The translations under genes were made by a program, and so were the position numbers. Below the pieces are notes generated by a model that saw only the letters and a list, made by a program, of their open reading frames with translations, had not been told where the DNA came from and made no database searches. From assembly GCF_053078305.1 (NCBI RefSeq), contig NZ_CP166879.1: 64,000 bases of DNA; one strand, 5' to 3'. Positions 12,233 through 59,105 of this stretch are shown here, piece by piece. Each line of letters starts with the position of its first letter. Positions within the stretch are counted from its first letter, which is position 1.

Positions 12233-12528
12233 GTCGCTCCGGCGACCACCAATGCTCCACAAGTGGCCTGAGAGGAGCGCCTTCGGGTGGCTACATGTCG
12301 CTTCGGCGACCACCAATGCTCCATAAGTGGTCTGAGAGGAGCGCCTTCGGGTGACCACATCCCGCTTCGGTGGGCACCAATGTTCCGTTGATCTGAGAGG
12401 AACGCCTTCGGGTGATCAACACCCCCGTAACCTGAAAGGGGATGTGCAGCCAGGATGTTTCTGGTGGTGGTAAATCTGCCCACCTTTGAGAGCAGATATC
12501 GTCAGTCATGACGATGAAGGTTTTCTTT
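12233..12528 (+). repeat. structured repeat element, copy 1 (three about 60-nt sub-units plus tail); candidate ncRNA
   Basis: Repeated hairpins with CTTCGG tetraloop motifs (GTCGC-TTCG-GCGAC etc.) and recurring CTGAGAGGA motifs. Near-identical to copies at 56604-56840 and 58871-59105. Confidence 0.5.
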
Positions 12529-37708: not shown

Positions 37709-37714
37709 GCAATC

Positions 37715-39233
37715 ATGACCACAAATAACTATCTGGAATATTTTCTGACTCTGCTGGGCTGGGTGGTGAATAACGGTCTGTGGAATGTGTTGATCAGCAC
37801 AGGACTGTTTGCCCTGCCACTGGCATTCAGGATCATCGGGATCTGGCTGAAAGTCAGGGAAGAAGGTGCGGATGAGGGAAACAAAGGGATGCTTTCCCTG
37901 CCGCGTATTGAGCATGTTCTCTATGGTGCTTTTTTTGTGATGATATCCTGCTGTGTTCCTCTGGTACAGGTGACGCTGGATACGCTGTCATTCGATAAAT
38001 CCAGGGCACAGACCTGTGGGGTATGGACACCTGAAGAGCCCGGAGAGACGGGGTACAGTGGGGTGATCAGCAGTATAGGGGATCAGACTGCTGCAGCCCC
38101 GGTATGGTGGGTGGTGGTTCATAAATTGTCGAAAGGTGTCACCCAGGCGGCAGTGGCTTCGATTCCGTGCCGGCCTGATTTGCGCCAGTTGCGTTTTGAG
38201 ATCCAGCGAACGTTTATAGAAAACAGGGCACTTGCTGATGAGCTGCAGGACTTTATGAACGACTGTTATTCACTGGCACTGTATGTGGAAACAGCGTGAT
38301 CAGGGGCAGAGTAAAGATAAAAAAGTGCTTGATGATATCTCCTGGATAGGGAGCGCCACATTCATGCAGGGGGATTACGGGACGCTGCAGTCAAAGATGC
38401 CGCGGGCTGCGTTCCCGTGGAATACAGCACGTGACAGCGGACGACCGGATACGGGGCGGGGAGGCTATCCGACATGCCGGGAGTGGTGGAGTGACAGTAG
38501 TGTGGGGCTGAAAAAACGGGTCATGGAGGAGGTCAGTGACCATTACTGGTTACGTCTGTCAGCTGCAATGAAGATGATTGGCAGTAGTCAGGTGGATTAT
38601 AAGGAGGAGGTGATCAAGCGTCTGGTGAGTCCGGCAAACCTGACGCTCTCTCAGGGGGGAGAGGTGTATCGTGGCTATGGTGGCAATGCAGATATGACGA
38701 CTATGAATGCGGTGGCCCGGATTGCGGGAACGGCGGGCAGTGCGGTAGCAGCACTGGGTGCGTTTCCGGCACTGGATGCAATGCGGCAGGCACTGCCGAT
38801 GGTACAGTCGATAATACTGATGGCGATTTACATCATGATACCGCTGATTCTGGCGTTTGCGGCATATGAACTGTCGACGTTAATCACACTGACGTTTGTG
38901 GTGTTTGCGGTACACTTTCTGACGTTCTGGTGGGAGCTTGCACGGTGGCTTGACAGCTGGATGCTGACGGCGCTGTACAGTTCGGATACACATACCCGGT
39001 TCAATATGATGGGATTCCAGAACACATCGGATGATCTGATAATGAATCTGGTGATGGGGACAATGTTTCTCGTCTTGCCGGCAGTGTGGCTGGGTGCGTT
39101 GTCCTGGGCTGGGGTGAATATGGGCTCTGTGGTTGGTGATACTTTTGGAAAAAGTACAAGTCATACCTTTCAAGCTGCATCAAAAAGTGGTGATCTTGCA
39201 TCTAGTGGAATTTCAAAAGGTATGAATAAATAA
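37715..39233 (+). pseudogene. traG: TraG-like conjugal transfer protein (TraG_N-type), apparently split by a frameshift near 38283-38299
   Basis: Two overlapping ORFs in different frames (37715..38299 and 38283..39233) together give about 510 aa with multiple TM helices typical of TraG_N. Could be a genuine frameshift or a sequencing error. Confidence 0.6.
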
Positions 39234-39235
39234 GA

Positions 39236-39267
39236 AAAAGTCCAGTATAATTTATACTGGACTTTTT
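39236..39267. terminator. bidirectional rho-independent terminator after traG
   Basis: Perfect inverted repeat AAAAAGTCCAGTATA-ATT-TATACTGGACTTTTT, with A/T tracts on both sides. Confidence 0.65.
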
Positions 39268-39671
39268 GAATAAGTATCATCATATGAAAGGCGTTTTTAT
39301 TTGTGTTGGTGAAATAAATGGAGATTCAATTTCTGATACAAATGGTGATTTATAAGATAGGTCTAAGGGCATGTCGTTATTATTTTTAATAACTGAAGCA
39401 GATTGTTTATTAGCCAAAAATGCACAAGTGACCTTTTTTACAAGGGAGTTGAAGGTCCATGGATTATCCATCGGCTTACAACGCCACATTGCTTTTTCAG
39501 ATTCGTTATTCATATCTATACCCTCGGCGCAGGATAAATAACACAGTGTTATCATACGTCTTGTATGATAAATGTGCAATCACATGTCTTCCATTTGATG
39601 AGAGGCTGTGACGCCACATTACCTTGGGACACGGGGATTCTGTTGAAATGATCCATCTGAGAATGTATCTT

Positions 39672-39692
39672 GTTGTTATGTTATAACATGGG
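39672..39692. promoter_or_regulatory. Zur-box-like palindrome upstream of ykgM
   Basis: Palindrome ATGTTATAACAT inside TGTTGTTATGTTATAACATGG, about 15 bp upstream of the ykgM start. ykgM-ykgO is the classic Zur-repressed operon. Confidence 0.4.
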
Positions 39693-39701
39693 TGAAGACA
39701 G

Positions 39702-39965
39702 ATGAAACCAAATATCCATCCTGAATACCGCACAGTAGTGTTCCATGACACGAGTGTGGATGAGTACTTTAAAATAGGTTCTACCATCAAAACAGAGCGC
39801 GAGATTGAACTGGACGGTGTGACGTATCCGTATGTGACGATTGACGTTTCCTCCAAATCGCATCCGTTCTATACCGGTAAACTTAGAACGGTGGCATCAG
39901 AAGGCAATGTTGCCCGCTTTACTCAGCGTTTTGGTCGTTTCGTTGGGACTCAGAAGGGGGAATGA
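39702..39965 (+). CDS. ykgM: 50S ribosomal protein L31 type B (zinc-independent paralog)
   Basis: 87-aa protein [31 protein letters not shown]... lacking the Cys zinc ribbon; followed by an L36 paralog. Confidence 0.9.
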
Positions 39966-40105
39966 TGAAAGTGCTTAATTCTCTGCGAACGGCCAAAGAG
40001 CGACCTCCTGACTGTCAGATAGTGAAGCGCAAAGGGCGATTGTATGTAATTTGTAAATCCAATCCTCGTTTTAAGGCTGTTCAGGGACGCAAAAAAAAGC
40101 GTTGA
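39965..40105 (+). CDS. ykgO: 50S ribosomal protein L36 paralog
   Basis: 46-aa [49 protein letters not shown], start overlapping ykgM stop. Below the ORF-track size cutoff. Confidence 0.85.
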
Positions 40106-40588
40106 TTCCGAAGCTTGTACATAGACTGTGAGCAGTGCTCAGACATGATTTATGTCGGTACATTAGCATTGATGTGTGTCGGCATTAATTAATTTTTGTG
40201 GATGCGTTCTATCATTCATATCTTCCTGTGCTTTGCTGCTTGATGGGAAATCCTCTTCCAATATCACGGCGATGTTCACTTTTTGCGTAAGTGGACATCG
40301 CTGCGTATTTTTTGTTAGTTGGGGTTTGAGGCTCAGTGGAACAATAACCGCCGTTAAGCGGTCATTTTAAATAGCCAAAAATCAACCCAAAAATCAACCA
40401 GCCAATTTACATCGTGAATCTGCGTTCTTGGCTATCTGTTTTGGGGGGGCCAAGTTGGCTTTAGTCATCCTGGCCGTTTGCGGAACAAAAGACGTTGTTG
40501 ATCTCAACAGATTGATTTACCTGTTATTGACCATTCAATTGAACCGCTTAACCGCCTTTTGAGTTCCACTACTCCCCAAACCCCTAGT

Positions 40589-41683
40589 TTAGTTTTTAGT
40601 TTCCAACGGTGGTAATTTTTCAAGTGTCAGTAGTTCCTGCCCCTTTACCCGACGGCATTGGGAAGCTGCATCCTGAAGTTTTTCGCGAACGTTATTATCA
40701 TAGTCGGGATCCAATAGTTGGTATTGAAGACTATCTTTGTATGATTGAATGATATTTAGTGGACAGATAAGGCGTATATCACCGAGTGAATAAAGTTTTA
40801 CTGCCTTAAGTAAATAGTATTTTTCATCTGAAGAGCGAGCACTCTGCCAGGCTGAGTTTCTGAAATATTCAGCAGGATATGAGGTGGTCGGTATTCCATA
40901 AACATGAGGAGTCAAGTCCATGATTCCTGATATTTTAAGGAAAATAGTTAGTATTAGAGCTGGAACCATATGCACAAACGTAAAAATGAAGGCTAATATT
41001 CCAGCCATGATTCCGCCAGTCACAATTACCTGATTTAGCAAGCTGGTGCGGGTTCTTAACCTGAGGAAAACAATACAGGGAATAAGTGAAAAAATAATCA
41101 GAAGAATTGATAATACTATAACACTCAACACCTGCCAGAACTCGTTTATTCCTTCCGGGAATTCCAACGTATGAAGAAATAACTCAAGAGGAATAATATA
41201 TATGCAGGCTGCGTGGGTGAATAGCGTTGACTGTACAATATGCATGGAAAGAAACTTTTTGATCTGCTTCCACTTACCCTCTGTGCTTATCTGTCTATAA
41301 GTAATAGAGCCATTGAGACACAGAGAAAGTATAAAACTGCAAATCCAGATAATGCTTAACTGAAGTAGCACATATTGTTCAATTTCTTTTCCTGCGTTGT
41401 ACATGAGGAAAAAATAACCAAAAAATATCAGTGTTGATAATAGCGAGGTCAGAAGAACGATTTTGATGTTGTTTTCCGTCAGTTCATTCCGGAAATCACT
41501 TTCCCCTGGATAATTGGAAATATAGAATCCTGCCACTAGTGAGGGCATAAATAACGCCATGCAAAATAGGAGTACGCTGATACAAGCAAAGACCATCAGA
41601 TAACTGAACAATGATGAAAAAGAAATACTGTCAAAAAAAAGTCCTGTTTGTCCAATACGCGCAAGATGTGACCATATAAACAA
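40589..41683 (-). CDS. polytopic membrane protein of unknown function (low GC)
   Basis: 364-aa ORF with about 8 predicted TM helices and a C-terminal soluble tail; AT-rich codon usage unlike surrounding DNA. Confidence 0.5.
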   Translation of the reverse strand: MFIWSHLARIGQTGLFFDSISFSSLFSYLMVFACISVLLFCMALFMPSLVAGFYISNYPGESDFRNELTENNIKIVLLTSLLSTLIFFGYFFLMYNAGKEIEQYVLLQLSIIWICSFILSLCLNGSITYRQISTEGKWKQIKKFLSMHIVQSTLFTHAACIYIIPLELFLHTLEFPEGINEFWQVLSVIVLSILLIIFSLIPCIVFLRLRTRTSLLNQVIVTGGIMAGILAFIFTFVHMVPALILTIFLKISGIMDLTPHVYGIPTTSYPAEYFRNSAWQSARSSDEKYYLLKAVKLYSLGDIRLICPLNIIQSYKDSLQYQLLDPDYDNNVREKLQDAASQCRRVKGQELLTLEKLPPLETKN

Positions 41684-43103: not shown

Positions 43104-43348
43104 TCAGGATCTGATGGAGGTTTTTTACGAGAATTAAACTTATCGATCAGATTAAAAACTATCGCTGCTAGTGTTATCGATGTACCTGCTATGCACCCAA
43201 ACACAATAACTCTTATCATTTGGTGGGTCGGGAAAAAAAAGAATCCTTTTGTTAGGTAAATAAATAAAGCTCCTCCCCCCATCAAAAGAAATCCACTGAT
43301 GATACAAAAGAGGCATGCATATATGAACAATACAATGTAAGCAATCAT
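43100..43348 (-). CDS. cdiI: CdiI immunity protein (small two-TM membrane protein)
   Basis: 82-aa ORF whose start overlaps the cdiA stop (ATGA); two hydrophobic helices. Confidence 0.65.
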   Translation of the reverse strand: MIAYIVLFIYACLFCIISGFLLMGGGALFIYLTKGFFFFPTHQMIRVIVFGCIAGTSITLAAIVFNLIDKFNSRKKPPSDPE

Positions 43349-46300
43349 TTCCCCTCCTCCTTCTTCGCGCTAGAAGAGAACTGATTATTACTACTTGCTT
43401 CTTTTATATATCCACCAAGAAATTCACTACCAAAAGATCCTGTCGCATCAAATATAAATCCCGGAAACTCTTTCCCAGTAACTGAGTTTACTATTCCGGG
43501 AGCATATACTCCAAATGCTCCACCCAATCCGGCCCCGGCAGCAGCCCCTCCAATAGAGCCTGTATTTGGACCATCGGTAAAGAATGCACCACCCATCGCA
43601 ATTCCGACGTTTTGTCCGACAGTTCTCCCCGGCGCAAGCATACCCGCAATGCCTGAACTGGCACTGCTTTTCCAGTCCCAGTTTTTGTTTTCATTACCTG
43701 GCTGGCTTAAATCAAACCACTGGTAACTTCCATTGGCTATCTCCGCGACGACTCCACCACTGACCATTTTACCGACCGAAGCAGCAGGCCCCAGATACCA
43801 TGCCCCGGCAATCATTACACCATCCTGATATCCATCCACGATCACTTTCGTGATATTGGTGCTGTCCGGCATATCACCTTTCGCTATCTTATCCAGTCCA
43901 GCCTGTGTTTGTTCCGGTGTCAGATTATTGTCCACCGCGTACTTGTTCCATGATGTAGCCGCAGCAGCATTGCTTTCAAAACCATCACCGAAGCTGAGCG
44001 CATTATTCTCAACCGTCGTCTTACCTGACTGTGCTCCGGCTACCGCTGAAGCTCCCGAATCTCCCACCAGACCACCGGCCAGGCCGGCAGCAACCGTTGC
44101 CAGTGTCGAGACCGTCTGCTTCTCTGTCCCGCTCAGTTCACTCACCGGCTTACCGTACATCTGTGTGGCTATCATTCCCACCACCTCGCCGGTGGCTGCG
44201 CCTGCGGCACCAGCCAGAGCATTCTTACCCTGTGCCAGAGACAGGGCTGCATTCACTACTGCATGAGCTGCCACACGTCCCGCACCGTCCGGGGTGGTCT
44301 GTTTGATAATTTCAGCAATATACGGTGCTGCACCACCTGCCAGGGCTGCACTCAGATTACCGCCGGCCAGCCCCTGTACTGCTGCCGTTGCGGCCTGTAT
44401 CGCCTGCTGGTATTTGCCTCCCGTTCCAAAACCTGAGGCCGCCATACCGTTATTGTAGGCCCGCTGCGCCACATCCTGTTCCGTGAACGGTTTTCCTGCT
44501 GCCTCAAGCTCCTCACGGGCCTGATTCAGTGCTGCCGGGTCCCGCTTCGCTTTCTCACCAGCTATCTGGCCTTCCGTTCTGGCAATATCTGCCACCTGGT
44601 TACCAATCTCACCAATGAGCTGCGCCTGCTGCAGTCGCTGCTGCTCTTTTTCCCTGTCAAAGATGGGGGACAGCGTCTGGTTTGCATGTGCTGCGTCACG
44701 GTTCAGGTCTGCCACATCCTGTTTCTGGCTCTGCGTATCCCGGATGGTGATATTCCCGGCAGACACAGCCGACTGAGTGGTGCTTTCTGCATGGCCTTCA
44801 TGATTTGCACCAACCAGCAGATTGTTGGCCATATTTCCCGCGAACTGGCCACCGATGCTGCCGCCAGTGCTGATACCCACGCTCTGGTGTTCAACTTTGT
44901 AATCAGCACGATTTTCGATATCACGGAAGCCCAGTGTACCGGTATCCAGCCGGTTTTTATCTGCCGTTGCCGTGGACGCAATCACCGCACCGTTCAGTTG
45001 CGTATGCTGTCCGGTGGTGACATCAAACCCGCCCCTGCCGGCAAAAATCCCCGTCTGCTCCTGCACACTGTCATAGTTACTGTGCATTTTATCCCGGCTG
45101 AGGCTCACACTCGCCGAACCGCTCATGGACCCGAAAGTGAAGCTGCCTCCGGCACTGGCATTCTGCTGCTTACTGTCATAACGGTCACTGTCCTGCTCAC
45201 TGGTCAGTGTCAGATGACGACCGGCATCCACTTTCACCGTTTCACCGCCGGCCTGCACGCCGGTAAGCGTGGTGTCCCGCCCGCTGATAATGGTCAGGCG
45301 GTTTCCCGCATCCACCGTGGTTTCTGTATGGGTGGTACCGTTGCCTTTTTCACTGCCCTTACCCTGGTTTGCGCTGGCTGAAACACTGATACCCCAGCCT
45401 CCGGCCCCCACACCGATACCGACACCCACACTGCCGCCACTGGATGAGTTCTTTCCTTCCAGCTTTGACGTGTTTTCTGCTGATACCAGATTCACGTCAC
45501 GGTTTGCCTGCAGCAGAACGTTGTTCCCTGCCTTTATCTGACTGCCCTGTATCGTCAGGTCACCATCCACGTCCTTCACGCCGGAGCCGGTGGCCTGAAT
45601 ACTGAGGTTATTACCTGCGGTCAGGGCGCTGTTCTTCGCCACCGTCTGCTCTGACTGCTGTTCTGATTTCGAAGACTGGCTGCCGTAAGAGAGGCTGATA
45701 CCCACGGCATTGTTATTCTCTTTCTGGTTGCCCTGTGCTTCTGCCAGTCGTCCGGCCTGCACGGCCTGAGCCCCCGAGAGCGCGGCCTTCACCCCCTGCA
45801 GGGCTTCAAGCCGGCTGTTTCCGGCAGATTTCGCCGCCTGCACGGTCTCCACCGTCGTGTTCAGGGCGCTGCCCACTGTGCCGGACAGGGCAAGCGTCAG
45901 ACCGGAGGTTTTCTGCTCCACCGAATGCGTCTGCACATGCCGGTCTGTGACGGCGCTAATGCTGACCTCCTTACCACTGAGTGCCATGTCCCTGCCGGCA
46001 ATCAGGTCAGCACTGTTGGCGCTCAGCCGGTTACCTGCCTGAAGGGAAACATCACCGTGAACACTCCCCACCGTGCTGCCTTTCTGTGTGCTGTCTGTTG
46101 CGGTGTCCGTGACTTTCAGACTCTGGCTGCCCACACTGAATCCCACACCTCCGGAGCTCATCAGCCCGGATTTTTTCTCCTGTTTCAGGTGTGTTTCACG
46201 GTTGCTTTCTGTCAGCGTGCCGATACTCAGGTCATTTCCGGCAGCCAGGGAGACACGGTTATCCCCGGCCACACTGCTGCCCGTGACGTTCAGATTATGT

Positions 46301-49300
46301 CCGGCACTGATACTGACCGTATCCCCGTTCAGTTCACTGCCCGTCATGGTCCGGCGGTCAGTGACATCATGCGTGGTTGTGGTGGTTTTCGATAACATCC
46401 CGCTGCTGCCGGTCACTTTATGGTATTCATCCAGCGAGCGGGTATTCTGTGCACCGGTCAGCGTCACGTCATGACCTGCCATCAGGGCCAGGCCTTTCTG
46501 AGCTGACAGCGATGCCGCCTGTGACGTCATATCCCGTCCGGCGGTCAGCGTGACATCACCGTTACCGGCAAGCGTGCTGCCCGTACTCTGTGTGACGCCC
46601 TGCGACAGACGATTATTTTTATCCCAGATAATATTGTCCTGCGCGGAAGTGGTCACTGTGGAAAGCGTCATATCCCTGCCCGCACTGAGTTGCGTCAGGC
46701 TGTCCTTACCCTGATTCACCACCGTTGCAGCCGTCAGATTCATATCCCGTCCGGCCTGCAGCACCAGTCTTCCCTGGTCGTTCTGCACATACACGCCGGC
46801 CACACTGTCGATACTGGTACGTTCAAAATGGTTCTGTCCGGCGTCGCGCTGTGCCGTACGGGTGGTGGTGGTCAGACTGATATCCCGTCCGGCCATCGCC
46901 AGCAGGCTGTCCGTGGCCTGCAGCAGCCCGCCGGTACTGTTAATATCCGTCCGGGCCGTCAGGCTGACATTTGCTCCCTGAATGGAGCCGGCCTGGTTGT
47001 GAATGTTTTCTGCACTGAGCTGCACGGTCTGCTTCCCGGCCAGTTTACCGCTGTTAAACAGGTCACCATCCAGCTTCATCACCATGTCCCTGCCGGCAAT
47101 CAGCGCACCGGCACTGTTCACATCACCGGGTTTTACACGGGCATACACCTGAGGTACCTGAACTGTCTGCGTGCTGCCGTCCGGCAGTGTCACCGTGGTG
47201 TTAACCAGCCAGACAATATCCCCGGTCAGTAACGCCATCTGCTCAGCCGTCAGCGCCACACCCGGTTTCAGGTTGTATTGCTTACCAAATGCAATACCCG
47301 CATCCATTAATGCCTTAAACTGCTCTTCATCACTGCCGTATCTGTCCAGGTACCGTTGCCCGGTCAGAGCGACAACCTGCTCTCGAATCAGACGCTGCTC
47401 GTAAAAACCGTCTCCCAGACGTTTGAGCATGTTATCCCCGTTCTGAGAAAACGCCTTCTGCATGTAATCACTGCCCAGCCACATCTTCTGGTTCGTAAAA
47501 CGCGGGTCCGTTTCAACCAGATATGGCACATTCACTGCCGGATTTGTTTTAAACAGACTGCTGTCCGGCAGACGGGTATCCGGCCCGGCAACATGGATAC
47601 TGCCCTGAGGTGTGCTGACTTCAAACTGCTGCCCCGGCAACAGAATGACCGGTTCACCGGCAGACACCACCGGGCGAAGCGGTATCCGGTCAGTAGCGGC
47701 TACTGCCGCATCCACATTTCCGGCCTGTCCTGTCTGTACATCCGTTCCCTGTGGCTTCAGAGGAGAAAGCGTGACCTGGCTGCCCTGAATCTGTCCGTGG
47801 CTGGTGAGCTCTCCCGGCTTCAGCGTAATGCTCTGAATTACAGTGGGCGGAGTGTACTGAGAGGTTTTCTCCCCCTGCTTATCCTTTCCTTTTTTCCTGA
47901 TACGGTAATAATACGTGGATGTTCCTGAGTCCGTAACATGCCGCTCGCCACTGACACTGACATTTTCCACGCTTCCTGACGGAATGGTCAGCAGGCCGCC
48001 TGCAACAACCTGACTCTTATCATTAAGCAGTTTGTCTGCCACAATCGTCATGCCGGCACCGGACAGAATTTTTCCCGGGTCGGAGTCTTTTACCCGGGTT
48101 TCTTCCACGGTACGGGTGTAATCATACTGCGTGAATTTATCTCTGGCGCCTTCCGGTGTATGCAGTTTTTTCAGTGAGTTACTGGAATCGTTATCCACAT
48201 AAACGCCCGGTTCACCGGCGCTCCAGCGTTTATCTGAGCCGCTGAGCTGATACTCAGTCACCTTTTCCGTGGAAACCACCACGCGCTCCGTGGTGAAATG
48301 GTCATTGACGTTATTGATTTGTCCGGCACTCAGTACCAGATATCCGGCGGCTTCAATAGTGGCACTGTGATTATTCAGTACACCGGCTTTCCCCGTGGCG
48401 GCACCATTCGCATCCAGCATGCCACCAGTATGCATATCACCTGCACTGTAAATCAGGCTGTGCGTCCGGTTATTCAGGGTCTGTACCCCTAAGTCCACAC
48501 GCTCACGCCCGGCCAGCGTCGCCGCCACGCCATTTTCTTCCAGATTATTAAATGTGGCAGCGCTGACACCAACAGCATCGCCGTAGATTCGCCCGGTACC
48601 GGAATTCGTCAGGGTGTTCGCCTGAAGATGCGTATATTTCCCGTCAATCAGCCCACGGTTCAGCAGTGTGTCCGTCACGTTAAGCCAGGTCTGCCCGGCA
48701 CTGATTTCACCTTTCTCTGTGTTTTCAAGGCGGATGCTGTTCAGGTCAAGCCGGCTGCCTGCCAGCAGGCTGCCGGTATTAGAGACATCGCCATTAACGG
48801 AAAGCGTAAGGTTTCCGTTCGCAATAGTCTGACCACTGTTGCTGAACGTTGTGTTACTTTTCAGCGTCATATCGCCCAGCGAAAGCAGTTTCCCGTCACC
48901 ACCGAGCTGACCGGCATCCACAGATACTGACTGCCCGGCCTTAACCACGCCGTCACGGTTCGAAAACGCCAGCTGACGGCCACTGACAGACAATGTCGCG
49001 CCGGAAGAGAGGACGCCGTCATTATTACTGAGCGTCCTGTCTGCCATAACCGTAAGCGCCCTGTCTGCCAGAATACTGCCCTCCTGGTTATCAAGGTCCT
49101 GCGTCGTGATGTGTATTGTCTGCGCTTCCAGCCCCTGACCGGTATTCTGCGTGTGGCGATTGATAAACTGCAGGGCGTTCAGCGTAATGGCGGAACCACT
49201 GCGAATCAGACCAGAGACGTTGTCCACAACGCCCCGTACACTGTTGAGCAACATGTCGCCCACAGACTGTATTTGTCCGTGGCTGTTCTGCAGACCTCCC

Positions 49301-52290
49301 GTATGCAGACGGAGTTCACCTTCACTGACCAGCCGGCCCCCCTCACGGTTATCCAGCGAGGTGGTGCTCAGGTCAGCTGTCGTTTTCGCCCCCACGGTCC
49401 CGCCCCGGTTATCCATTGCTCCGGTACTGACAGTCAGTTCCTGCAGGCTGTTCAGCGTACCGCGTCTGTTATCCAGCGTCTGGCCTGCGGTATTAATGCT
49501 GATACCCCTCCCCTGAATAAGACCGGACTGATTGTTCAGCGCCTGGCTGTTCCAGCCGAGCAGACCGTTTGCCACCATCTGACCGGATGTATTGTTAACC
49601 ACGCCTGCAGTCAGGGACAGAGCATCTCCCGACAAAAGCACACCGGCAGTGCTGTCCAGTGTGCCGGCATTCAGCGTCATCGGACCCTGACTGATAACCC
49701 CGCCCCGGTCACCACTATTACGGTTACTCAGTGTGTCAGCACGGAGATTCAGCGATGCACCGCTCTGTATCAGGCCGCCGGCATCGTTGATGATATCCGT
49801 CGAGGAAAGTGTCAGTGACTGCTGTGCCACCAGTCTGCCGCCCTGATTATCAAACCGTGTGACATCCAGCCTGCTGTTACCGTTGCTGACCACCGTCCCC
49901 TGCTGATTTTCCAGCACACTCAGGTGCGTATTCAGGTCCCCGCCGGCGGCAAGCGCCCCTTCCTGATTACTGACATCACCACCACTCAGCAACATATCCG
50001 TCCCGGCCTTCAGTGCGCCTTTCTGGTTCATCAGCGTACCTGACGATATCTGTAATGACGTCTGACTCCCCAGCACGCCCTGACGGTTATCGAGCGTTCC
50101 GGCGTTCAGGGTCATATCCTTCTGACCCGCCATAAATCCCTGCTGGTTATTCAGCATACCGGCCCGCACTGTCAGGGTACCGGCGCTGCTGATACCACCC
50201 CGTGTTTTCGTGTTCCGGTTACTGAGTACCCCGTCCTGTACATCCAGCGTCATGTCACTGCCGGACTGAATCAGACCATCATCAGAGACCAGTTCGCTGC
50301 CTGACACAGACAGCGTTTTCTGTGAAAGCAGTCTGCCGGACGTATTATCCAGCGCACCATCCAGCGTCACAGACAGCCCGTCAGCCACCACCGTACCCTG
50401 GTGGTTATTCAGATTCCCTGCCGAAATATCCAGCCTGCCGGCGGACTCCATTCGTCCCTCAGTATTGCTGACAGCCTGCTGTGTTTTTATCCTGCCCGTT
50501 CCGGCAGCAGCTGAAATCAGTCCGTTGTCGTTATTCAGCGCCTGTGTATTAATCAGGATGTCACGGCTGGCAAGCAGACGTCCCTGCTGGTTATCCACGG
50601 CGCCGGTTGTCCTCACCTGCAGACTGCCTGACTGCGCCGCCTGCACTTTCCCCCTGCGATTATCAAGGCTCAGTGCATCCAGACGCACCGCGCCATTTGC
50701 CGCAAACAGCCCTTCCCGGTTATCCACGCTTCCCGGCAGACTCAGCGAAAAATCCCCTGTTCCCGTCTGAGTCAGACTGCCTTTACGATTTGACAGGCTT
50801 TGTGCCGATATCTGCAGTGTGTCGGCATTTATCGTGCCACCATTATTGCTGAAGTGCCCGACAGTCCGGGCGGAAAGCGTACCGGCACTCAGTTGCGCAT
50901 TCTGTGTGGACAGATTTCCACTGGTTGCATCCAGCTCAGTATGTTGTCCCTGTATCCGGCTGTTGCTTAAATCCAGCCCCTGCCCCTTCAGTTGCATGTC
51001 CCCACCGGACAGAACCTGTCCGTGTGCCGCCAGTTCGCCGGTGGTACTGACAGTCAGGTTGCCCGCTGCCGCCAGACGTCCGTCATCTTTCACCCCGGCG
51101 GCCAGCAGACTCCGCTCACCGCCGGTCAGACGCGCTGTCTGAATCCGGGTGTTGCGACGTGATGCCACAGAGCCTGTATGGGTGAAGACACCATCACTCT
51201 GTATCTGCGTATCCTGCCCCGCATAAACAGAACCACTGTTATGCAGCTCCCGGGTTGTCGCCAGATGCACATCCGTTTTCGCACTGATACTGCCACTGTT
51301 TTCAATACGTCCGTCAGCCGTCAGGGTAACCGCCCCTGCCTGTGCACCAATATGACCGGCGTTACGAACACCCACCCCCGTTTCCGTACCGACAAGGCGA
51401 ATTTTTCCGGCATACATTCCGCCAAGACTGGCCACATCCAGTGCCATCTGAGGCTGTGAAGAGACATCACCGGTCTTTTTCTCAATCTGCCCGTGCGCGA
51501 TATCCACATTGTTACGTCCTGTGGTCACTTTCAGATCCTGCGCCCAGATACCCGCATTAATCTTCACAGACCGGGCAATGATATCGGTATAATCCGTGCG
51601 CGAGGCATCCATCCCTTTGCCCGTAACCTGAATCTCACCACGTTCAACACTGAATCCGGTCAGACTGCCGTTTTTCATCTGCGGCTGCCCCGTGGTCAGC
51701 GTGGCCCGGTTCGCATTAATAAAACCGCACCCGTCGCAACTGATGCCGGCCGGGTTCGCAATCACCACCTGCGCCTTTTTACCGGCAACCTCAACAAAAC
51801 CGTTCAACTGGCTGGGATTGCGACTGTTCACTTCATTAAGAATGATTCTGGCCTCTCCCTTAGCCAGCCACGGGTTCCCGGCCACCATGCCACCCAGTTG
51901 AGTCTGCACATTGTTATGGGCATTATTCAGAATGACGCCCTGGTTACCGACGTCGAACTGGCTGTATGCGTTATGTGAAACCCCGCCGGCAGAAGGCGTC
52001 TGAATATTCACCTGCGGAATGCCGCTGGCCGTCTGCGTAATCGTGGGCTGCTGATACCCTGGTGCGCCATGGTCTGCGACAATGCCTGCAGCACTGACAG
52101 AATGCACCATCCCCGAAGCCAGCCACAAAGAGAATGCAAGCGGCGTGACACGGCAGATACGTTGCCTGTGTGGATATCCTGTGCGGGAGGACAGTGATGT
52201 ACCGGCGCGACCGGAACGGGCAATATCTGCCACCACCATCAGCATTCCCCGGGCTTTGTTAAAAATAATGCGGTAACAATTTCTGTTCAT
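43345..52290 (-). CDS. cdiA: CdiA, contact-dependent growth inhibition exoprotein (TpsA/filamentous-haemagglutinin family)
   Basis: 2981-aa ORF; extended TPS signal peptide MNRNCYRIIFNKARGMLMVV, TPS domain with NPAGISCDGCGFIN, long haemagglutinin-type repeats, VENN motif at 44002-44013, then a 218-aa Gly-rich hydrophobic C-terminal domain (43348-44001). Confidence 0.9.
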   Translation of the reverse strand: MNRNCYRIIFNKARGMLMVVADIARSGRAGTSLSSRTGYPHRQRICRVTPLAFSLWLASGMVHSVSAAGIVADHGAPGYQQPTITQTASGIPQVNIQTPSAGGVSHNAYSQFDVGNQGVILNNAHNNVQTQLGGMVAGNPWLAKGEARIILNEVNSRNPSQLNGFVEVAGKKAQVVIANPAGISCDGCGFINANRATLTTGQPQMKNGSLTGFSVERGEIQVTGKGMDASRTDYTDIIARSVKINAGIWAQDLKVTTGRNNVDIAHGQIEKKTGDVSSQPQMALDVASLGGMYAGKIRLVGTETGVGVRNAGHIGAQAGAVTLTADGRIENSGSISAKTDVHLATTRELHNSGSVYAGQDTQIQSDGVFTHTGSVASRRNTRIQTARLTGGERSLLAAGVKDDGRLAAAGNLTVSTTGELAAHGQVLSGGDMQLKGQGLDLSNSRIQGQHTELDATSGNLSTQNAQLSAGTLSARTVGHFSNNGGTINADTLQISAQSLSNRKGSLTQTGTGDFSLSLPGSVDNREGLFAANGAVRLDALSLDNRRGKVQAAQSGSLQVRTTGAVDNQQGRLLASRDILINTQALNNDNGLISAAAGTGRIKTQQAVSNTEGRMESAGRLDISAGNLNNHQGTVVADGLSVTLDGALDNTSGRLLSQKTLSVSGSELVSDDGLIQSGSDMTLDVQDGVLSNRNTKTRGGISSAGTLTVRAGMLNNQQGFMAGQKDMTLNAGTLDNRQGVLGSQTSLQISSGTLMNQKGALKAGTDMLLSGGDVSNQEGALAAGGDLNTHLSVLENQQGTVVSNGNSRLDVTRFDNQGGRLVAQQSLTLSSTDIINDAGGLIQSGASLNLRADTLSNRNSGDRGGVISQGPMTLNAGTLDSTAGVLLSGDALSLTAGVVNNTSGQMVANGLLGWNSQALNNQSGLIQGRGISINTAGQTLDNRRGTLNSLQELTVSTGAMDNRGGTVGAKTTADLSTTSLDNREGGRLVSEGELRLHTGGLQNSHGQIQSVGDMLLNSVRGVVDNVSGLIRSGSAITLNALQFINRHTQNTGQGLEAQTIHITTQDLDNQEGSILADRALTVMADRTLSNNDGVLSSGATLSVSGRQLAFSNRDGVVKAGQSVSVDAGQLGGDGKLLSLGDMTLKSNTTFSNSGQTIANGNLTLSVNGDVSNTGSLLAGSRLDLNSIRLENTEKGEISAGQTWLNVTDTLLNRGLIDGKYTHLQANTLTNSGTGRIYGDAVGVSAATFNNLEENGVAATLAGRERVDLGVQTLNNRTHSLIYSAGDMHTGGMLDANGAATGKAGVLNNHSATIEAAGYLVLSAGQINNVNDHFTTERVVVSTEKVTEYQLSGSDKRWSAGEPGVYVDNDSSNSLKKLHTPEGARDKFTQYDYTRTVEETRVKDSDPGKILSGAGMTIVADKLLNDKSQVVAGGLLTIPSGSVENVSVSGERHVTDSGTSTYYYRIRKKGKDKQGEKTSQYTPPTVIQSITLKPGELTSHGQIQGSQVTLSPLKPQGTDVQTGQAGNVDAAVAATDRIPLRPVVSAGEPVILLPGQQFEVSTPQGSIHVAGPDTRLPDSSLFKTNPAVNVPYLVETDPRFTNQKMWLGSDYMQKAFSQNGDNMLKRLGDGFYEQRLIREQVVALTGQRYLDRYGSDEEQFKALMDAGIAFGKQYNLKPGVALTAEQMALLTGDIVWLVNTTVTLPDGSTQTVQVPQVYARVKPGDVNSAGALIAGRDMVMKLDGDLFNSGKLAGKQTVQLSAENIHNQAGSIQGANVSLTARTDINSTGGLLQATDSLLAMAGRDISLTTTTRTAQRDAGQNHFERTSIDSVAGVYVQNDQGRLVLQAGRDMNLTAATVVNQGKDSLTQLSAGRDMTLSTVTTSAQDNIIWDKNNRLSQGVTQSTGSTLAGNGDVTLTAGRDMTSQAASLSAQKGLALMAGHDVTLTGAQNTRSLDEYHKVTGSSGMLSKTTTTTHDVTDRRTMTGSELNGDTVSISAGHNLNVTGSSVAGDNRVSLAAGNDLSIGTLTESNRETHLKQEKKSGLMSSGGVGFSVGSQSLKVTDTATDSTQKGSTVGSVHGDVSLQAGNRLSANSADLIAGRDMALSGKEVSISAVTDRHVQTHSVEQKTSGLTLALSGTVGSALNTTVETVQAAKSAGNSRLEALQGVKAALSGAQAVQAGRLAEAQGNQKENNNAVGISLSYGSQSSKSEQQSEQTVAKNSALTAGNNLSIQATGSGVKDVDGDLTIQGSQIKAGNNVLLQANRDVNLVSAENTSKLEGKNSSSGGSVGVGIGVGAGGWGISVSASANQGKGSEKGNGTTHTETTVDAGNRLTIISGRDTTLTGVQAGGETVKVDAGRHLTLTSEQDSDRYDSKQQNASAGGSFTFGSMSGSASVSLSRDKMHSNYDSVQEQTGIFAGRGGFDVTTGQHTQLNGAVIASTATADKNRLDTGTLGFRDIENRADYKVEHQSVGISTGGSIGGQFAGNMANNLLVGANHEGHAESTTQSAVSAGNITIRDTQSQKQDVADLNRDAAHANQTLSPIFDREKEQQRLQQAQLIGEIGNQVADIARTEGQIAGEKAKRDPAALNQAREELEAAGKPFTEQDVAQRAYNNGMAASGFGTGGKYQQAIQAATAAVQGLAGGNLSAALAGGAAPYIAEIIKQTTPDGAGRVAAHAVVNAALSLAQGKNALAGAAGAATGEVVGMIATQMYGKPVSELSGTEKQTVSTLATVAAGLAGGLVGDSGASAVAGAQSGKTTVENNALSFGDGFESNAAAATSWNKYAVDNNLTPEQTQAGLDKIAKGDMPDSTNITKVIVDGYQDGVMIAGAWYLGPAASVGKMVSGGVVAEIANGSYQWFDLSQPGNENKNWDWKSSASSGIAGMLAPGRTVGQNVGIAMGGAFFTDGPNTGSIGGAAAGAGLGGAFGVYAPGIVNSVTGKEFPGFIFDATGSFGSEFLGGYIKEASSNNQFSSSAKKEEGK

Positions 52291-52842
52291 TCTGATAAAC
52301 CTGACTTATCTCTCCGGCACATCCACAGCAAGCGGGTGCTGCACACGCCACTGGCGCGCCTCTTCACGACTGACCTGTGCACCCCGGAAATTCATCACCC
52401 GTAACCCGGTCTGCTGCCCACGGTGGTACAGCGAACGCCAGCACAGACGGGGAAAAATATCCTGCCGGACAAGACGACTCATATCCGGAGTGTGTCCAAA
52501 AGGGGCAACCCAGTCACAGACCCACATCCGGTCGCCGCTGTTCCAGTCCGACTGAGGCATGAGAATTGCCGGCTGCGTAAGATAACGCGCCTCTGCCTCC
52601 GGGCTGAGCCAGGCCTGGCTCATGAAGAAAACCGGTCGCCCCTGCTCTGTTGCCACCACATACTGTCGGTGCTTAATCACCGGCAGCTGCAGGTCCGGCA
52701 GGGTATGCAGTGGCGCATCACGATGCAGGGGGGAGTGCATCCACAACCAGACGGCCGCCCCCAGGACTTCCGCCTCATTGACCGGCTCACCGGAATACAG
52801 GGGACTCAGAACGTCATATTTCCCGTTACGCATGAAACTTTC

Positions 52843-54582
52843 TCAGAAATCCCGGAACAGATTAAAACCGGCTGTCACATCACTCGTCATAAAACCCGCC
52901 GGCTTTGAAAACGGACGACCGATGAAAACGTCATAATCCGTACTGAACAGTTGCCCCCTCAGCCCCACAACACCACCGGCCAGATGACGTCCCACCAGAT
53001 ATTCACTGCCGGCTCCCCCCACCTCGCCGTAATCCATTCCCAGATATAACGCCTGCTCCGGCAGTGGCGTACGCCAGGCCAGGTCGTTGCGGATATACCA
53101 GCCGTTACTGGCATTCAGCGTTCGCTCCCCGTCAAAACCACGAACCGTCCAGCGGTTACCGATGGCAAACTGTTCCTGTGGGGTCAGCGGGGTATTGCTC
53201 AGCTGGCGCTGATACCGGAAGGAATAACTGAAGGGCTGCTCTGCCAGTGTAAAGGGCAGATTAAAGGATGCATTCATCTGCAGGATCTTACTGAGCGCCG
53301 TTGCCTCACCGAAGATTTCCTCCGGTGCCGGCTGTGCACCAAACCAGCGGGTTCCCCGTTGCCAGCTGACACCAGCATCCAGTGTGGCCTGAGAAATATA
53401 ATGACGGTGCTGCAGCCCAAGTCGCCAGGCCGCTGTCTGCCGGCGCTGCACCTGGATTTCCGTATCATTAATGTAGTTACGCGACCTGCGGGCCTGAACA
53501 TCGTAAGTCAGCACCGTTTTCTGCGTCCCGTTACGATGCAGTACCCGGCTCAGCTGCATGCCCAGATTCTGACTCTCGCCACTGTACTGGTAATCCTCAA
53601 CCGCACCAGCTACCGTCTGATGGTAATCGTAATCACTGGCGGTGACGGAAAACTGCCAGTAACCGAAAGGCACAGAGTAATGGGCCGTGTAGTTTTTACT
53701 GCCCTTACCCCCGTAATGTGGAAAATTATGGGTGGCAGAAACATACAGCAGGTCACTCAGGGAAAAAGGATTATCCAGAGAAAATGTTATACCACCGAGA
53801 TAACGCCCTGTGCTGCGGGTACCTGAATCATCAAGCGAAAACCCCAGTCGCCAGTATTTATCCTGTTTACGGGTAATAAGAATATCACTTTCCCCTGGCT
53901 GCTCACCGGGCACAATTTCCATATCAGCCTGCACACCCGGCAGTCGTTGCATATTCTCCAGCCCCTGCTCAATGTCCCGTAAATCCAGCAGAGAACCTTC
54001 GTGTGCCGGGAATGAGGAATACAACTGAATATAGTCATCACTGTCCGGTGTCAGACGCACATGTCGCACAACACCGGGAATAACAACCAGCCGGAGGATA
54101 CCGCTTTTTAAATCCTGCGAAGGTGCCAGAACACGGGTGGTGACATAACCATGATCGACAAGACGGTTCTGCAATGTACTCATCAGCAGATTAATTCCTT
54201 TCGCCCCCAGGCAATGCCCGACCGCCCCGTTGGCGATTTTTTGTAAAGGCAGCCAGTGTGGTAACGCATCAGCCCCCTTCAGTTCCGTCTGTTTAATCTG
54301 AAAACAGGGCGTTTCAACAGGAAAATTAATCTTATGGGCAAAAGAGCCAGGTGCAGAAAGGCGAACATCAGGGGCTGAAGGCGTCAGTTGTTGCTCAAGG
54401 GCTTCCTGACGCTGCTGCTGAATGATAAATGTATCCTCTCCACTACGCCGGATATCCGCGGCCTGAAGAGATAAAGGCGATAATAAAACAGACATCAGTG
54501 TCAGTGATAAAATGAACGGACAGCGCCGGAATAAGCTTTGTTCCTCAGCCCTCTCGTTCCTGCAACATAATTTTCCAGCCAA
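52843..54582 (-). CDS. cdiB: CdiB, TpsB-family outer-membrane transporter
   Basis: 579-aa ORF directly upstream of cdiA on the same strand; signal peptide, POTRA-like region and C-terminal beta-barrel ending ...FNLFRDF. Start may instead be at an internal Met (about 54495). Confidence 0.85.
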
Positions 54583-55203
54583 ACGAAAAACCTTTTATGC
54601 ATGCTGTGTCAACAATCACCAGCCTCCTGACGATGTCTGCCGCCATTTTGGCAATAACACACTACCGCCCTTCCGGAATTCCCCGTATCAACCGGTACCA
54701 GAATGCTGAGTAACCAGTCAGCCAAATCAGGCTGGTTTAATTTTGCTCATTATAGAATAATGATCTGAAAAATATCAATATAACAGGTGTATCGATCGTA
54801 ATTGCAGATGCTTGCAGATCTTTATTCCAGTATATGTTGTCAAGCTGGAATATTTAGAAATATATATCCATGACTAATGTGGAAATACAGAAAATTATTC
54901 CAGTGAATGCTTTTTATACGGTCTCCTGGCACAGAAAATGGTGATTTTTGATTTGAATCATTGAAATCAGTTCTGCTAATAAGAAGACATGCTGAAAAGC
55001 CGATTTTCAGGGGGTGATTGAAGGGATTGTGAGTTTTTCCTTCGGCTTTTAACGTAACTTCCTGTTTTCCTGATATTCCACGGCAAGATTAATTTTTAGC
55101 GGAGCAGAATGAATAAAATCTTCATCTGGTGTTTTTGCTGCGCGTAAATGCAGGTGTAACTGTGGATGTTATCCACTGAAGAGCTGCTGATGAGGATGAA
55201 GAC

Positions 55204-56444: not shown

Positions 56445-56603
56445 TTATCTCAGAATAAACATTGATGAATGGTAATAACAGGGACTGTTAATACTGTCCC
56501 TGTTATTTTTTCTGCAGACTGTTTTCTGTTCTTCCTGGTTATGTTCTGAGTGATGATGATTGACGCCTTTTATACGCTCTGATATGCTCAGAATGCATTA
56601 TCT

Positions 56604-56840
56604 GTCGCTTCGGCGACCACCAATGCTCCATAAGTGGTCTGAGAGGAGCGCCTTCGGGTGGCCACATCCCGCTTCGGTGGGCACCAATGTTCCGTTGATC
56701 TGAGAGGAACGCCTTCGGGTGATCAACACCCCCGTAACCTGAAAGGGGATGTGCAGCCAGGATGTTTCTGGTGGTGGTAAATCTGCCCACCTTTGAGAGC
56801 AGATATCGTCAGTCATGATGATGAAGGTTTCTTTTAACCG
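56604..56840 (+). repeat. structured repeat element, copy 2; left direct repeat flanking the recombinase module
   Basis: Near-identical to 58871-59105 and to the last two sub-units plus tail of 12233-12528; the similarity continues about 20 bp past the element. Confidence 0.55.
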
Positions 56841-57467
56841 CGCCCTTTATTACGGGCAATACACAGCAGTGGTTGTGTGATCCTTATCTATCCGGTGATG
56901 CCGGAATGTTTTTACTGCGTAATGGCGGTATTGACTTCTTTTATTCTTTTCATTTGTTTGCCAGCACTTCCTGCGACTGTGCGCGCTGTATAAGACCATT
57001 TGAAATTTGGTCGCTTACGCGTGTACCTGGCGTCTGAAGCTGCGCGGCGTCACTTTCGTCAGCGTGTCACGATGACAAAGTGACGCACGCGCGTCTGCTT
57101 AACGAACCCGCACGAACTGCCGTTTCACGTGATGTTTTTTAACATTTGAAGAAGTGACCCGGCGTGAGAGTGTTTTTTCAACCTCTTCTGCAAATTTACG
57201 GACGATTTTGTGAATAACGTCCATAAATGGTTTTTTGCAGAATTAATTGTTTTTTAAGGAGTTTTATGTAGTGAGATGCCGAATCGGCGATACCACTTAT
57301 TAGAGGTGGTGTCGGGGGCGACCTGGAGACAGGTACAGCAAATGCTGCAGTCGGTGTGCAACACCGATTTGTTACCCCTCAATACCTAAACAATCTGCGC
57401 TACCCTGGCGCACAGGCAGTCACTACCCGAAGGATCGCAACGTTTAACCGTGTCGTCAGGGAGAAAT

Positions 57468-57518
57468 GCAGATGAGTTTTTCTGTTGTGTTCACGGCACA
57501 ACAGAAAAACTCATCTGC
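57468..57518. other. perfect 22-bp inverted repeat with 7-bp spacer; candidate recombinase target site
   Basis: GCAGATGAGTTTTTCTGTTGTG-TTCACGG-CACAACAGAAAAACTCATCTGC, about 50 bp upstream of the recombinase start; no T tract after it, so not a typical terminator. Confidence 0.6.
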
Positions 57519-57567
57519 CGAACGTACAGCTGTTTAAGGTAAAAATTATTATGTGCAGGAGAAGTTG

Positions 57568-58470
57568 ATGTCCAGACGTGAAAAATTACTGAAACAGGAT
57601 CTGGTTGCTCACATTCGAAAAGACAAAGGCAGCTTCAAGAAGCTGAGTGATTACACCAGGATCATGCACCGCTTTGCTGAAAGTCTGGCAAAAATGAATG
57701 TACAGATCAGTTCTGCCGCGCAGGTAAAAGTCCGGCATATTGAGCTATATATGAGAAGCCGGAGTAATGTTTCTGGGCGAACAAGGGAAAATGAAATGTC
57801 TGCAATACGGGTTATGTTACGTCAGGCAGGTAAATATAAGATGGCTGATCCCGAACATCCTCGTCTCAGCAATAAAGCGTTAGGCATTTCCGGCTCCAGT
57901 CGTAAGGGAACAAAAAAATTAATCACGGATGAGCGTTTTCGGGAGATTCTTCAGCGTGTGGAAGCAAAAGATAAAGGGGTGGCTGCTGTTGTTAAACTGT
58001 CACGTTACCTCGGTCTGAGAAATGAAGAAGCTATCCAGTCGGCCAAATCATTACGAACCTGGAAAAAAGCGTTACAACGGGGAGATGAAAAAATAAGAGT
58101 GATTTTTGGTACGAAAGGGGGACGGGAAAGAATGACAACGGTTGTTGACCGGGATAACGTTCTTGATGCTGTTAATTATGCACTCAAATATGCCAGTGAA
58201 CATAATGGACGTCTTATAGACAGAGATAATCTTAAGTCGGCAATGGATTATTATCTTAATACATTACGTCGTTATGGAGAACTGAAAGGCGGAGATGAGA
58301 CTGCACACAGTTTTCGGTACAGTTACGCTGCAAGTGCCATGAAATATCATATTATGAACGGTTACAGTTATAAGGAGGCACTTGCACTGACATCAATTGA
58401 TCTTGGTCATGGTGATGGCAGAGGACGATATATTGAACAGGTTTATTGTCAGTTGTTAGGCTATGAGTAA
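57568..58470 (+). CDS. tyrosine recombinase / phage-integrase-family protein
   Basis: ORF track 57553..58470 (GTG); ATG 57568 after AGGAGAAG RBS. Catalytic-domain-like motifs: LGLRNEE (Arg I), HSFRYSYA (H-x-x-R) and a C-terminal RGRY region. Confidence 0.6.
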   Translation: MSRREKLLKQDLVAHIRKDKGSFKKLSDYTRIMHRFAESLAKMNVQISSAAQVKVRHIELYMRSRSNVSGRTRENEMSAIRVMLRQAGKYKMADPEHPRLSNKALGISGSSRKGTKKLITDERFREILQRVEAKDKGVAAVVKLSRYLGLRNEEAIQSAKSLRTWKKALQRGDEKIRVIFGTKGGRERMTTVVDRDNVLDAVNYALKYASEHNGRLIDRDNLKSAMDYYLNTLRRYGELKGGDETAHSFRYSYAASAMKYHIMNGYSYKEALALTSIDLGHGDGRGRYIEQVYCQLLGYE

Positions 58471-58502
58471 TAACTCATGGCGATTTCGTACGGGTAAATA
58501 TT

Positions 58503-58826
58503 ATGGATTGTACTATTTTGCTGAAAATAATCTCTGTAAAAGAGATTACAAAAAATTCGCCTTTGTGGTCACACTATCTGGCGCGATATGTTGATTCCGG
58601 ATATCAGGCCGAGTTTGAATGTGAAGGAACAGCAGATAAATGGGATATCTATGATGAATGGGACATCTATGAATCCATTGCGGATTATTTTGATGTGGTA
58701 GGAGATTTTAACTGTGATGTCAGATGGTCGGGAAGAAAAATACTGATTAAAGGGACCTGTGTTTTTCCTCTGGGAGAACCCGTTAAGGGAATACATAATA
58801 TTCCTCTTTGGATTGATGTTGAATAA
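58503..58826 (+). CDS. hypothetical protein
   Basis: 107-aa ORF, AT-rich, downstream of the recombinase. Confidence 0.35.
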   Translation: MDCTILLKIISVKEITKNSPLWSHYLARYVDSGYQAEFECEGTADKWDIYDEWDIYESIADYFDVVGDFNCDVRWSGRKILIKGTCVFPLGEPVKGIHNIPLWIDVE

Positions 58827-58870
58827 CTTGACATTCATCTTTTGTGATTTAAAAATATACAGGCTTATAT

Positions 58871-59105
58871 GTCGCTTCGGCGACCACCAATGCTCCATAA
58901 GTGGTCTGAGAGGAGCGCCTTCGGGTGACCACATCCCGCTTCGGTGGGCACCAATGTTCCGTTGATCTGAGAGGAACGCCTTCGGGTGATCAACACCCCC
59001 GTAACCTGAAAGGGGATGTGCAGCCAGGATGTTTCTGGTGGTGGTAAATCTGCCCACCTTTGAGAGCAGATATCGTCAGTCATGACGATGAAGGTTTCTT
59101 TATAA
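58871..59105 (+). repeat. structured repeat element, copy 3; right direct repeat flanking the recombinase module
   Basis: Near-identical to 56604-56840. Confidence 0.55.

Follow-up and report, generated by a model that had tools for sequence, protein, structure and literature searches.

Organization of the ykgMO locus

The 64-kb stretch of DNA analyzed here (hereafter, the window) carries, downstream of the conjugation gene traG, a two-gene operon encoding paralogs of ribosomal proteins L31 and L36. The operon, its upstream region and its immediate neighbors are laid out as follows:

37713-39233, plus strand: traG (TraG_N domain), which closes the conjugation module and is interrupted by a 2-bp deletion at 38281/38282
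39280-39513, minus strand: small gene for a conserved hypothetical protein of 77 aa, transcribed divergently to ykgM, its position kept in all integrative conjugative element (ICE) lineages examined
39643-39671, plus strand: sigma-70 promoter of ykgMO from a promoter scan, with -35 hexamer TTGAAA (39643-39648), 17-nt spacer and -10 hexamer TATCTT (39666-39671)
39674-39693, no strand assigned: predicted Zur operator TGTTATGTTATAACATGGGT, 20 nt, homologous to the footprinted operator of E. coli K-12 PykgM (PMC4219657)
39691-39695, plus strand: likely Shine-Dalgarno sequence GGTGA, 6 nt ahead of the ATG, from reading of the sequence
39702-39965, plus strand: ykgM, intact, 87 aa, type-B (zinc-free) ribosomal protein L31
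39965-40105, plus strand: ykgO, intact, 46 aa, type-B ribosomal protein L36
40267-40313, plus strand: terminator-like hairpin of 15 pairs followed by a T-run

The stop codon of ykgM overlaps the start codon of ykgO in the sequence TGATG, with an alternative ATG for ykgO at 39962, and the hairpin at 40267-40313 is probably the 3' end of the operon. The promoter scan also returned a promoter-like site on the minus strand, at 39578-39551. Local GC content falls to about 0.41 around ykgMO, and an Rfam search of positions 39000-41000 at a permissive threshold yielded nothing credible.

An earlier note on this DNA, made from its letters, had taken the two genes for zinc-independent L31 and L36 paralogs, and this assignment is confirmed by their NCBIfam matches. 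YkgM scores 122.7 bits against the type B L31 model NF002462 (cut-off 86) and falls under the cut-offs of the type-A L31 equivalog models NF000612 and NF001809, and YkgO scores 87 bits against the type B L36 model NF002021 (cut-off 70). The 87-residue translation of YkgM contains no cysteine and hence none of the CxxC motifs by which type-A L31 binds zinc. RpmJ has four zinc ligands; the only cysteines of YkgO are C17 and C30, and the histidine found at position 14 of K-12 YkgO is a proline here, leaving an incomplete set of zinc-ribbon ligands. The proteins are otherwise nearly those of K-12 (97-98% identity): 83 of 86 YkgM residues are the same, including all of residues 1-31, as are 45 of 46 YkgO residues, the one change being H14P.

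A predicted Zur-type operator spans the predicted ykgMO transcription start

The promoter hexamers and their spacing are those of the aligned K-12 PykgM promoter, and in this alignment the homology of the upstream DNA to K-12 starts abruptly at the -35 hexamer. The predicted Zur operator begins 2 nt past the -10 hexamer and spans the predicted transcription start, with the same geometry as in the aligned K-12 promoter. Its core is the 12-nt palindrome ATGTTATAACAT (39678-39689), which ends 12 nt ahead of the ykgM ATG and is the sole match to this sequence in the window at up to one mismatch, against a chance expectation of 0.07. The Zur-box-like palindrome reported upstream of the operon in the earlier note is thus real, and it forms the center of an operator homologous to that of K-12.

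The structure-based pattern for two Zur dimers is TGWNAYRWTATAWYRTNWCA, with skeleton RNNNYRNNRYNNYRNNNY (Gilston et al. 2014, PMC4219657). The window operator agrees with the full pattern at 17 of 20 positions, comprising 10 of 10 in the left half and 7 of 10 in the right half, and with the skeleton at 7 of 8, the position lost being the outermost RNNNY pyrimidine. The site keeps TTATAA at its center and no longer has the outer WCA on the right. The K-12 operator is an 18-nt perfect palindrome (GTTATGTTA/TAACATAAC), whereas the right half of the window operator is degraded, reading GGGT at the right outer positions where K-12 has AACA, and the whole operator lies 2 nt nearer to the ATG than its K-12 counterpart.

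A position weight matrix (PWM) was derived from the ykgM-proximal Zur boxes of 79 species, taken from species-representative genomes and comprising 46 distinct reference boxes; at all of these 79-species ykgM loci a box was present with at most three mismatches. The PWM scan that the earlier note had proposed as a check ranks positions 39674-39693 first in the 64-kb window, with 17.0 bits compared to 8.2 bits for the next unrelated site (mean -47, standard deviation 12.8). This score is nonetheless lower than those of all 46 reference boxes (minimum 17.9, median 29, K-12 32.5). Three ICE variants with differing flanking bases share the operator core TGTTATGTTATAACAT without change, and the core of the box is likewise invariant in about 30 genera. 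Scans with bare patterns were not significant: the 20-nt IUPAC Zur pattern at three mismatches showed no enrichment in the 64-kb window (4 sites found, 1.3 expected), and the older 23-nt Zur consensus had no match in the window at up to three mismatches. The case for the operator therefore rests on its homology to the K-12 operator, its position and the PWM built from ortholog boxes. PL31p is the tightest Zur operator of E. coli, and central bases dominate the binding energy, with outer bases counting less (PMC4219657). Since the central bases carry most of this energy, it is reasonable to infer that Zur binding is kept at the window operator but is weaker than at the native one.

The operon lies inside an integrative conjugative element

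Comparison with related genomes places the whole window inside a single mobile element, whose main features are:

1-64000, no strand assigned: internal segment of an ICE of the PFGI-1/SPI-7/ICEclc family, with neither element end in the window
12360-12525, 56603-56768 and 58870-59035, plus strand: STAXI RNAs (76-94 bits, above Rfam gathering thresholds)
57268-57425, plus strand: EFASI RNA (above Rfam gathering threshold)
43996-54726, minus strand: two-partner-secretion (TPS)/CDI module, with a tpsB-like gene, an acyltransferase, a 2981-aa CdiA-like PT-VENN protein and small downstream ORFs (Pfam)
52843-54582, 52306-52833 and 43345-52290, minus strand: ORFs of the TPS/CDI module

From a ParB gene to a DUF1281 gene, positions 1-64000 are collinear (98.5-99.8%) with the tRNA-Phe ICE of E. 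coli OkiPb01714, with three exceptions: 5583-7967 (IS66-like), 43996-54726 (the TPS/CDI module) and 57060-58861 (a variant stretch). The annotated genes include TIGR03745-03759 proteins, a PFGI-1-class PilL2, an SPI-7-type DnaB and STY4528/STY4534 replication proteins, as well as TraG_N, TraD, ArdC, a TraI relaxase, an integrase-domain protein and DUF1281; the integrase-domain protein, ArdC and DUF1281 are encoded to the right of the TPS/CDI module. STAXI and EFASI RNAs are motifs typical of such mobile elements, and STAXI RNAs occur on both sides of ykgMO. The window thus has the family-marker backbone of the PFGI-1, SPI-7, PAPI-1 and ICEclc elements, and its relative in OkiPb01714 is integrated at a tRNA gene. 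In the OkiPb01714 ICE, the tRNA-Phe gene, an IS-interrupted integrase and TraI are annotated, and an exact repeat of the 3' end of the tRNA-Phe gene was not found in 98 kb. What sets the window apart from these ICEs is its cargo (ykgMO, the TPS/CDI module and a DUF2569 protein), the frameshift in traG and the IS66 insertion.

Alignment to the intact 506-aa traG of a relative reveals that the gene, read here as two ORFs (37715-38299 and 38283-39233), has undergone a 2-bp deletion that converts TGTATATG into TGTATG. The same sequence is present in contig JPQG01000001.1 of GCA_000736735.1, which is 100% identical to the window over the 16.3 kb compared. Because of this deletion, and barring an assembly error, this copy of the ICE is probably conjugation-defective. 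The order traG, small divergent ORF, ykgM recurs in STEC1585, OkiPb01714, STEC2018-553 and O22:H8 strain 154, and it is the arrangement in all 10 distinct contexts returned for the exact YkgM protein of the window.

The TPS/CDI module starts 3.9 kb downstream of ykgO. OkiPb01714 and STEC1585 lack it in ICEs that are collinear elsewhere, and it was found in strain 154 and CFIAFB20190157. Judging from its absence in collinear elements, the module was inserted into the ICE cargo region.

The window operon is a second, diverged copy

A sensitive search located the native ykgMO operon in about 5044 of 5426 complete E. coli genomes, with 80-90% (typically about 82%) DNA identity to the window, so that nearly all hosts already possess it. 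An operon of the window type that is at least 95% identical is present in only 5 of these 5426 genomes, and a window-type copy in about 12 complete genomes. Both types coexist in STEC1585, which has ykgMO at two places. Native ykgMO and the window copy are alike in gene order, TGATG overlap, -35 and -10 elements, a Zur box following the -10 (PMC4219657; PMC9825181), encoded proteins and the N-terminus of YkgM. In contrast, they share only about 82% identity at the DNA level, their synonymous sites are close to saturation, and their neighborhoods are unrelated: the K-12 operon is flanked by ykgR on one side and ykgL/ecpR on the other, whereas the window copy has traG and ICE cargo in their place.

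These comparisons bear directly on the interpretation put forward in the earlier note, in which ykgMO is a housekeeping chromosomal locus that marks the chromosomal junction, with a truncated ICE to its left and a CDI island of separate origin to its right, at a hotspot with insertions on both sides. The resemblance of the genes and the Zur box to the K-12 operon, the local fall in GC content and the variable presence of the CDI module are all in keeping with such a locus. However, the native locus is a different sequence in a different neighborhood, the exact YkgM protein is always found beside traG, and the synteny comparison that the note had called for identifies the flanks of ykgMO as mobile-element DNA: one continuous ICE is collinear on both sides, and ICE genes and STAXI RNAs continue to the right of the CDI module. 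We consider a housekeeping chromosomal locus at this position extremely improbable in the light of this synteny, which refutes it. The operon is not a housekeeping locus but a second copy inside an ICE, there is no junction for it to mark, and the ICE, although damaged by the traG frameshift and the IS66 insertion, is not truncated at ykgMO and continues past it. The idea of a two-sided hotspot survives in part, in that the DNA downstream of ykgMO is variable and prone to insertion, but this DNA is an internal cargo region of the ICE and not chromosome. Furthermore, since the operon is itself mobile cargo, ykgMO is unusable here as a housekeeping marker for calling an island boundary in annotation.

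Selective constraint and origin of the ICE-borne copy

Compared to K-12, the ykgMO coding sequence shows 64.5 synonymous and 5.5 nonsynonymous differences (pS 0.69, pN 0.018, dN/dS about 0.01). From the -35 hexamer to the end of the palindrome, 43 of 50 positions (86%) are as in K-12, whereas the flanks match it at the level of random sequence, both upstream (30/83, 36%) and downstream (101/233 columns, 43%). A promoter-operator region that is recognizable at a depth where its flanks are unalignable is constrained sequence, and these substitution patterns show that both the coding sequence and the promoter-operator of ykgMO are under purifying selection. ICE lineages compared with each other differ by 30-44 synonymous and 6-8 nonsynonymous changes. 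The window copy differs from the closest ICE variant, that of strain 154, by two nonsynonymous changes (YkgO H14P and YkgM D32E) and no synonymous change.

The closest chromosomal ykgMO operons among 100,044 species representatives are those of E. albertii (83% DNA identity) and E. coli K-12 (82%), followed by Kluyvera (76%), with other genera at or below 76% in DNA and at 70-80% in protein; no chromosomal copy in this set that could mark a donor species is nearer than 83%. A small neighbor-joining tree places the ICE copies with Escherichia, outside the coli/albertii group, at the poor resolution that an 87-codon gene affords. Given the 82-83% identity of the closest chromosomal copies and this tree position, the operon was either captured long ago or donated by an Escherichia-like lineage outside the sample. 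That ykgM was captured by the ICE family in a single ancient event is an idea based on parsimony, from the position that the copies share. A plasmid origin of ykgMO was considered and rejected, as the 'plasmid' matches are F-primes or mislabeled chromosomes bearing the native E. coli type. Records of Salmonella and Enterobacter labeled as plasmids were discarded as a source as well, their neighborhood being the normal chromosomal one (amtB, tesB, acrB, hha/tomB).

Island-borne ykgM copies in other E. coli lineages

An additional copy of the type-B L31 gene, located on an island, occurs in about one in eight complete E. coli genomes. Besides the window type, these copies fall into three types:

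FDN-4 type, 36 genomes: without ykgO and without a Zur box, with a strong AAGGGGGA ribosome-binding site
JE86 type (ICE of JE86-ST05), 13 genomes: N-terminus replaced and GRF motif duplicated, without a Zur box and without ykgO
ter/ure island copy of O157/O26/O111, about 600 genomes: ykgM promoter recognizable, Zur box replaced, without ykgO

All of these encode an Escherichia-type YkgM (pN 0.02-0.05) and retain a homologous promoter remnant. In the ICE-borne FDN-4 and JE86 types, which belong to lineages about 20% diverged, the gene occupies the same slot as in the window, after traG and the small divergent ORF. The window type, with about 12 genomes, is far rarer than any of the three, yet it is the only lineage of island-borne copies in which both the Zur operator and ykgO are retained. 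Even within it, ykgO has been lost to an IS fragment in seven genomes. In two further ICE variants, those of NCCP 13963 (sequence L104, about 4985-5010) and OkiPb01692 (sequence L105, about 4960-4985), a mere promoter stump is left. In these two genomes the ykgM -35 and -10 elements are kept and ykgMO is gone; homology to the window stops inside the palindrome of the Zur box (about 39684), beyond which come TTAAGGGGGA and a hairpin. The occurrence of sister ICE lineages without the Zur box, ykgO or the whole operon indicates that this cargo is dispensable to the element. From these comparisons, the window copy is the most complete and most ancestral-looking member of a mobile ykgM series in which Zur control has repeatedly been lost.

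A literature search for ykgM together with 'integrative conjugative element' retrieved no paper, and no discussion of extra island-borne type-B L31 genes in E. coli was found in the searchable literature, where the sole listing is that of 'ykgM_2' in island GI46 of FDN-4/EC958, given without comment in the genome paper (PMC12054123). The closest conceptual precedent is provided by the Zur-regulated genes of the V. cholerae genomic island VSP-II (PMC8248653). In both cases the cargo of an acquired island is wired to the host Zur regulon through a Zur box. The VSP-II cargo consists of a regulator with chemotaxis/aerotaxis genes and its Zur control was tested experimentally, whereas the window cargo consists of ribosomal paralogs and its Zur control is predicted from sequence.

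We also observed that, in the ter/ure island of E. coli O157:H7 NE122 (sequence L100, 8946-9209), a full-length type-B L31 gene with a GTG start is followed by hok/gef, an arrangement that matches the cargo of the JE86-type ICE. The ykgM-derived PWM further detects Zur-box-like 20-mers at 11304-11323 of the same sequence (14.5 bits) and at 8364-8383 of sequence L098 (9.3 bits). Each immediately precedes a conserved hypothetical gene of 672 nt that is located 2 kb downstream of ykgM in the island and that may be another zinc-responsive cargo gene.

Predicted regulation and alternative explanations

With the gene identities, the ICE location, the divergence from the native copy and the purifying selection established as described above, we consider it probable that ykgMO is a second and intact copy of the operon, carried horizontally as ICE cargo downstream of traG and wired to the Zur regulon of the host. 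The following model is carried over by analogy from the K-12 system (PMC4219657; PMC9825181). No Fur-family regulator is annotated in the ICE, and the element probably has no regulator of its own for ykgMO and would rely on host Zur. Under zinc-replete conditions, Zn-Zur dimers would occupy positions 39674-39693, overlapping the stretch between the -10 and the transcription start, and shut out RNA polymerase. In zinc-starved cells, such as those facing host nutritional immunity, Zur would leave the operator and the translationally coupled ykgM and ykgO would be expressed, supplying an extra pool of zinc-free L31 and L36 to replace the zinc-binding forms in the ribosome. The N-terminus of L31p represses rpmE translation (Rasmussen et al. 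2022, PMC9825181), and that of the window YkgM, identical to K-12 over residues 1-31, would be expected to do the same. The degenerate right outer edge of the operator leads to the prediction of weaker or leakier repression, and of earlier induction, than at the native promoter. Several findings weigh against a functional cargo: the PWM score of the operator is lower than that of any chromosomal ykgM box in the survey, sister ICE lineages have lost the Zur box, ykgO or the entire operon, nearly all hosts already have a native copy, YkgO H14P and YkgM D32E set the window copy apart from its closest ICE variant, and the ICE is decaying, as seen in the traG frameshift and the IS66 insertion.

Alternatively, the operon could be a hitch-hiking relic, captured from a chromosome and drifting to loss, with its conservation reflecting constraint prior to capture. 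The deletion of ykgO by an IS fragment in seven genomes, the bare promoter remnant in NCCP 13963 and OkiPb01692, the disrupted N-terminus of the JE86 type, the weakened right half of the operator, the two nonsynonymous and no synonymous differences from strain 154 and the damage to the ICE itself all point in this direction. However, the operon retains two undamaged ORFs with their coupling overlap, its promoter, its Shine-Dalgarno sequence and an undamaged operator core, no chromosomal copy above 83% among the sampled species representatives qualifies as a recent donor, and ICE lineages with the gene in the same post-traG slot differ by 44 synonymous against 8 nonsynonymous changes, indicating constraint while ICE-borne; we judge a drifting relic to be unlikely. 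The type-B L31 gene might instead serve the element itself, remodeling host ribosomes or shutting off rpmE during stationary-phase transfer competence, with a vestigial zinc control that is being shed. Such a role would fit the presence of ykgM in one slot across several ICE lineages about 20% diverged, the weakness of the window operator relative to all those surveyed, and the finding that most island-borne copies lack a Zur box and yet keep a promoter remnant and the strong ribosome-binding site; it would also draw on the regulation of rpmE mRNA by L31p (PMC9825181). The proposal is nevertheless inferential throughout, some ICE variants do without ykgM altogether, and the invariance of the operator core in three variants of the window lineage suggests that Zur control is still under selection. 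To our knowledge, ykgM has no link to ICE transfer. A benefit to the element itself thus seems to us distinctly unlikely.

Implications of a mobile ykgM

The ykgMO operon is textbook knowledge, and the novelty here lies in its mobile setting. Retaining our preferred reading of an ICE-borne second copy under host Zur, we advance, as a speculation that is itself rather unlikely, that selection has long kept the type-B L31 gene aboard this ICE family, and that the gene is slipping step by step out of zinc control. The escape may have proceeded from the state of the window, where the core of the operator is kept and its edge lost, to that of the FDN-4, O157 and JE86 copies, where the box is gone and the ribosome-binding site is strong, and on to promoter remnants. 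If this were true, mobile elements would re-tune the L31A/L31B switch and the zinc economy of their hosts through repression of rpmE by L31p, to the advantage of host and element together in niches where zinc is scarce, such as the inflamed gut. The ykgM copies further constitute a natural allelic series with full, weakened and absent operators. This series is suited to studying the dose and timing of the L31A-to-L31B switch under zinc limitation, and it bears on whether mobile elements exploit that switch.

Additional features of the element

The IS66-like element at 5583-7967, absent from OkiPb01714, is 93-96% identical to IS66 copies found elsewhere in relatives. A tandem array at 8367-9114, within an ORF region, repeats a 36-nt unit 20.8 times (91% matches) and differs in length from the array of the OkiPb01714 ICE. 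At 40319-40500, about 180 nt of unannotated sequence are about 92% identical to sequence at 136 places in E. coli plasmids; in plasmid pSA186_2, a ProQ/FinO-family gene and a small hypothetical gene lie upstream of the similar sequence. This segment had no Rfam match, and its predicted fold (182 nt) does not stand out, with z-scores of -0.4 (plus strand) and -2.1 (minus strand). Lastly, the 175-aa ORF located between the tpsB-like gene and the 2981-aa exoprotein in the TPS/CDI module is annotated in relatives as a toxin-activating lysine-acyltransferase, an unusual partner of a CdiA-like protein.
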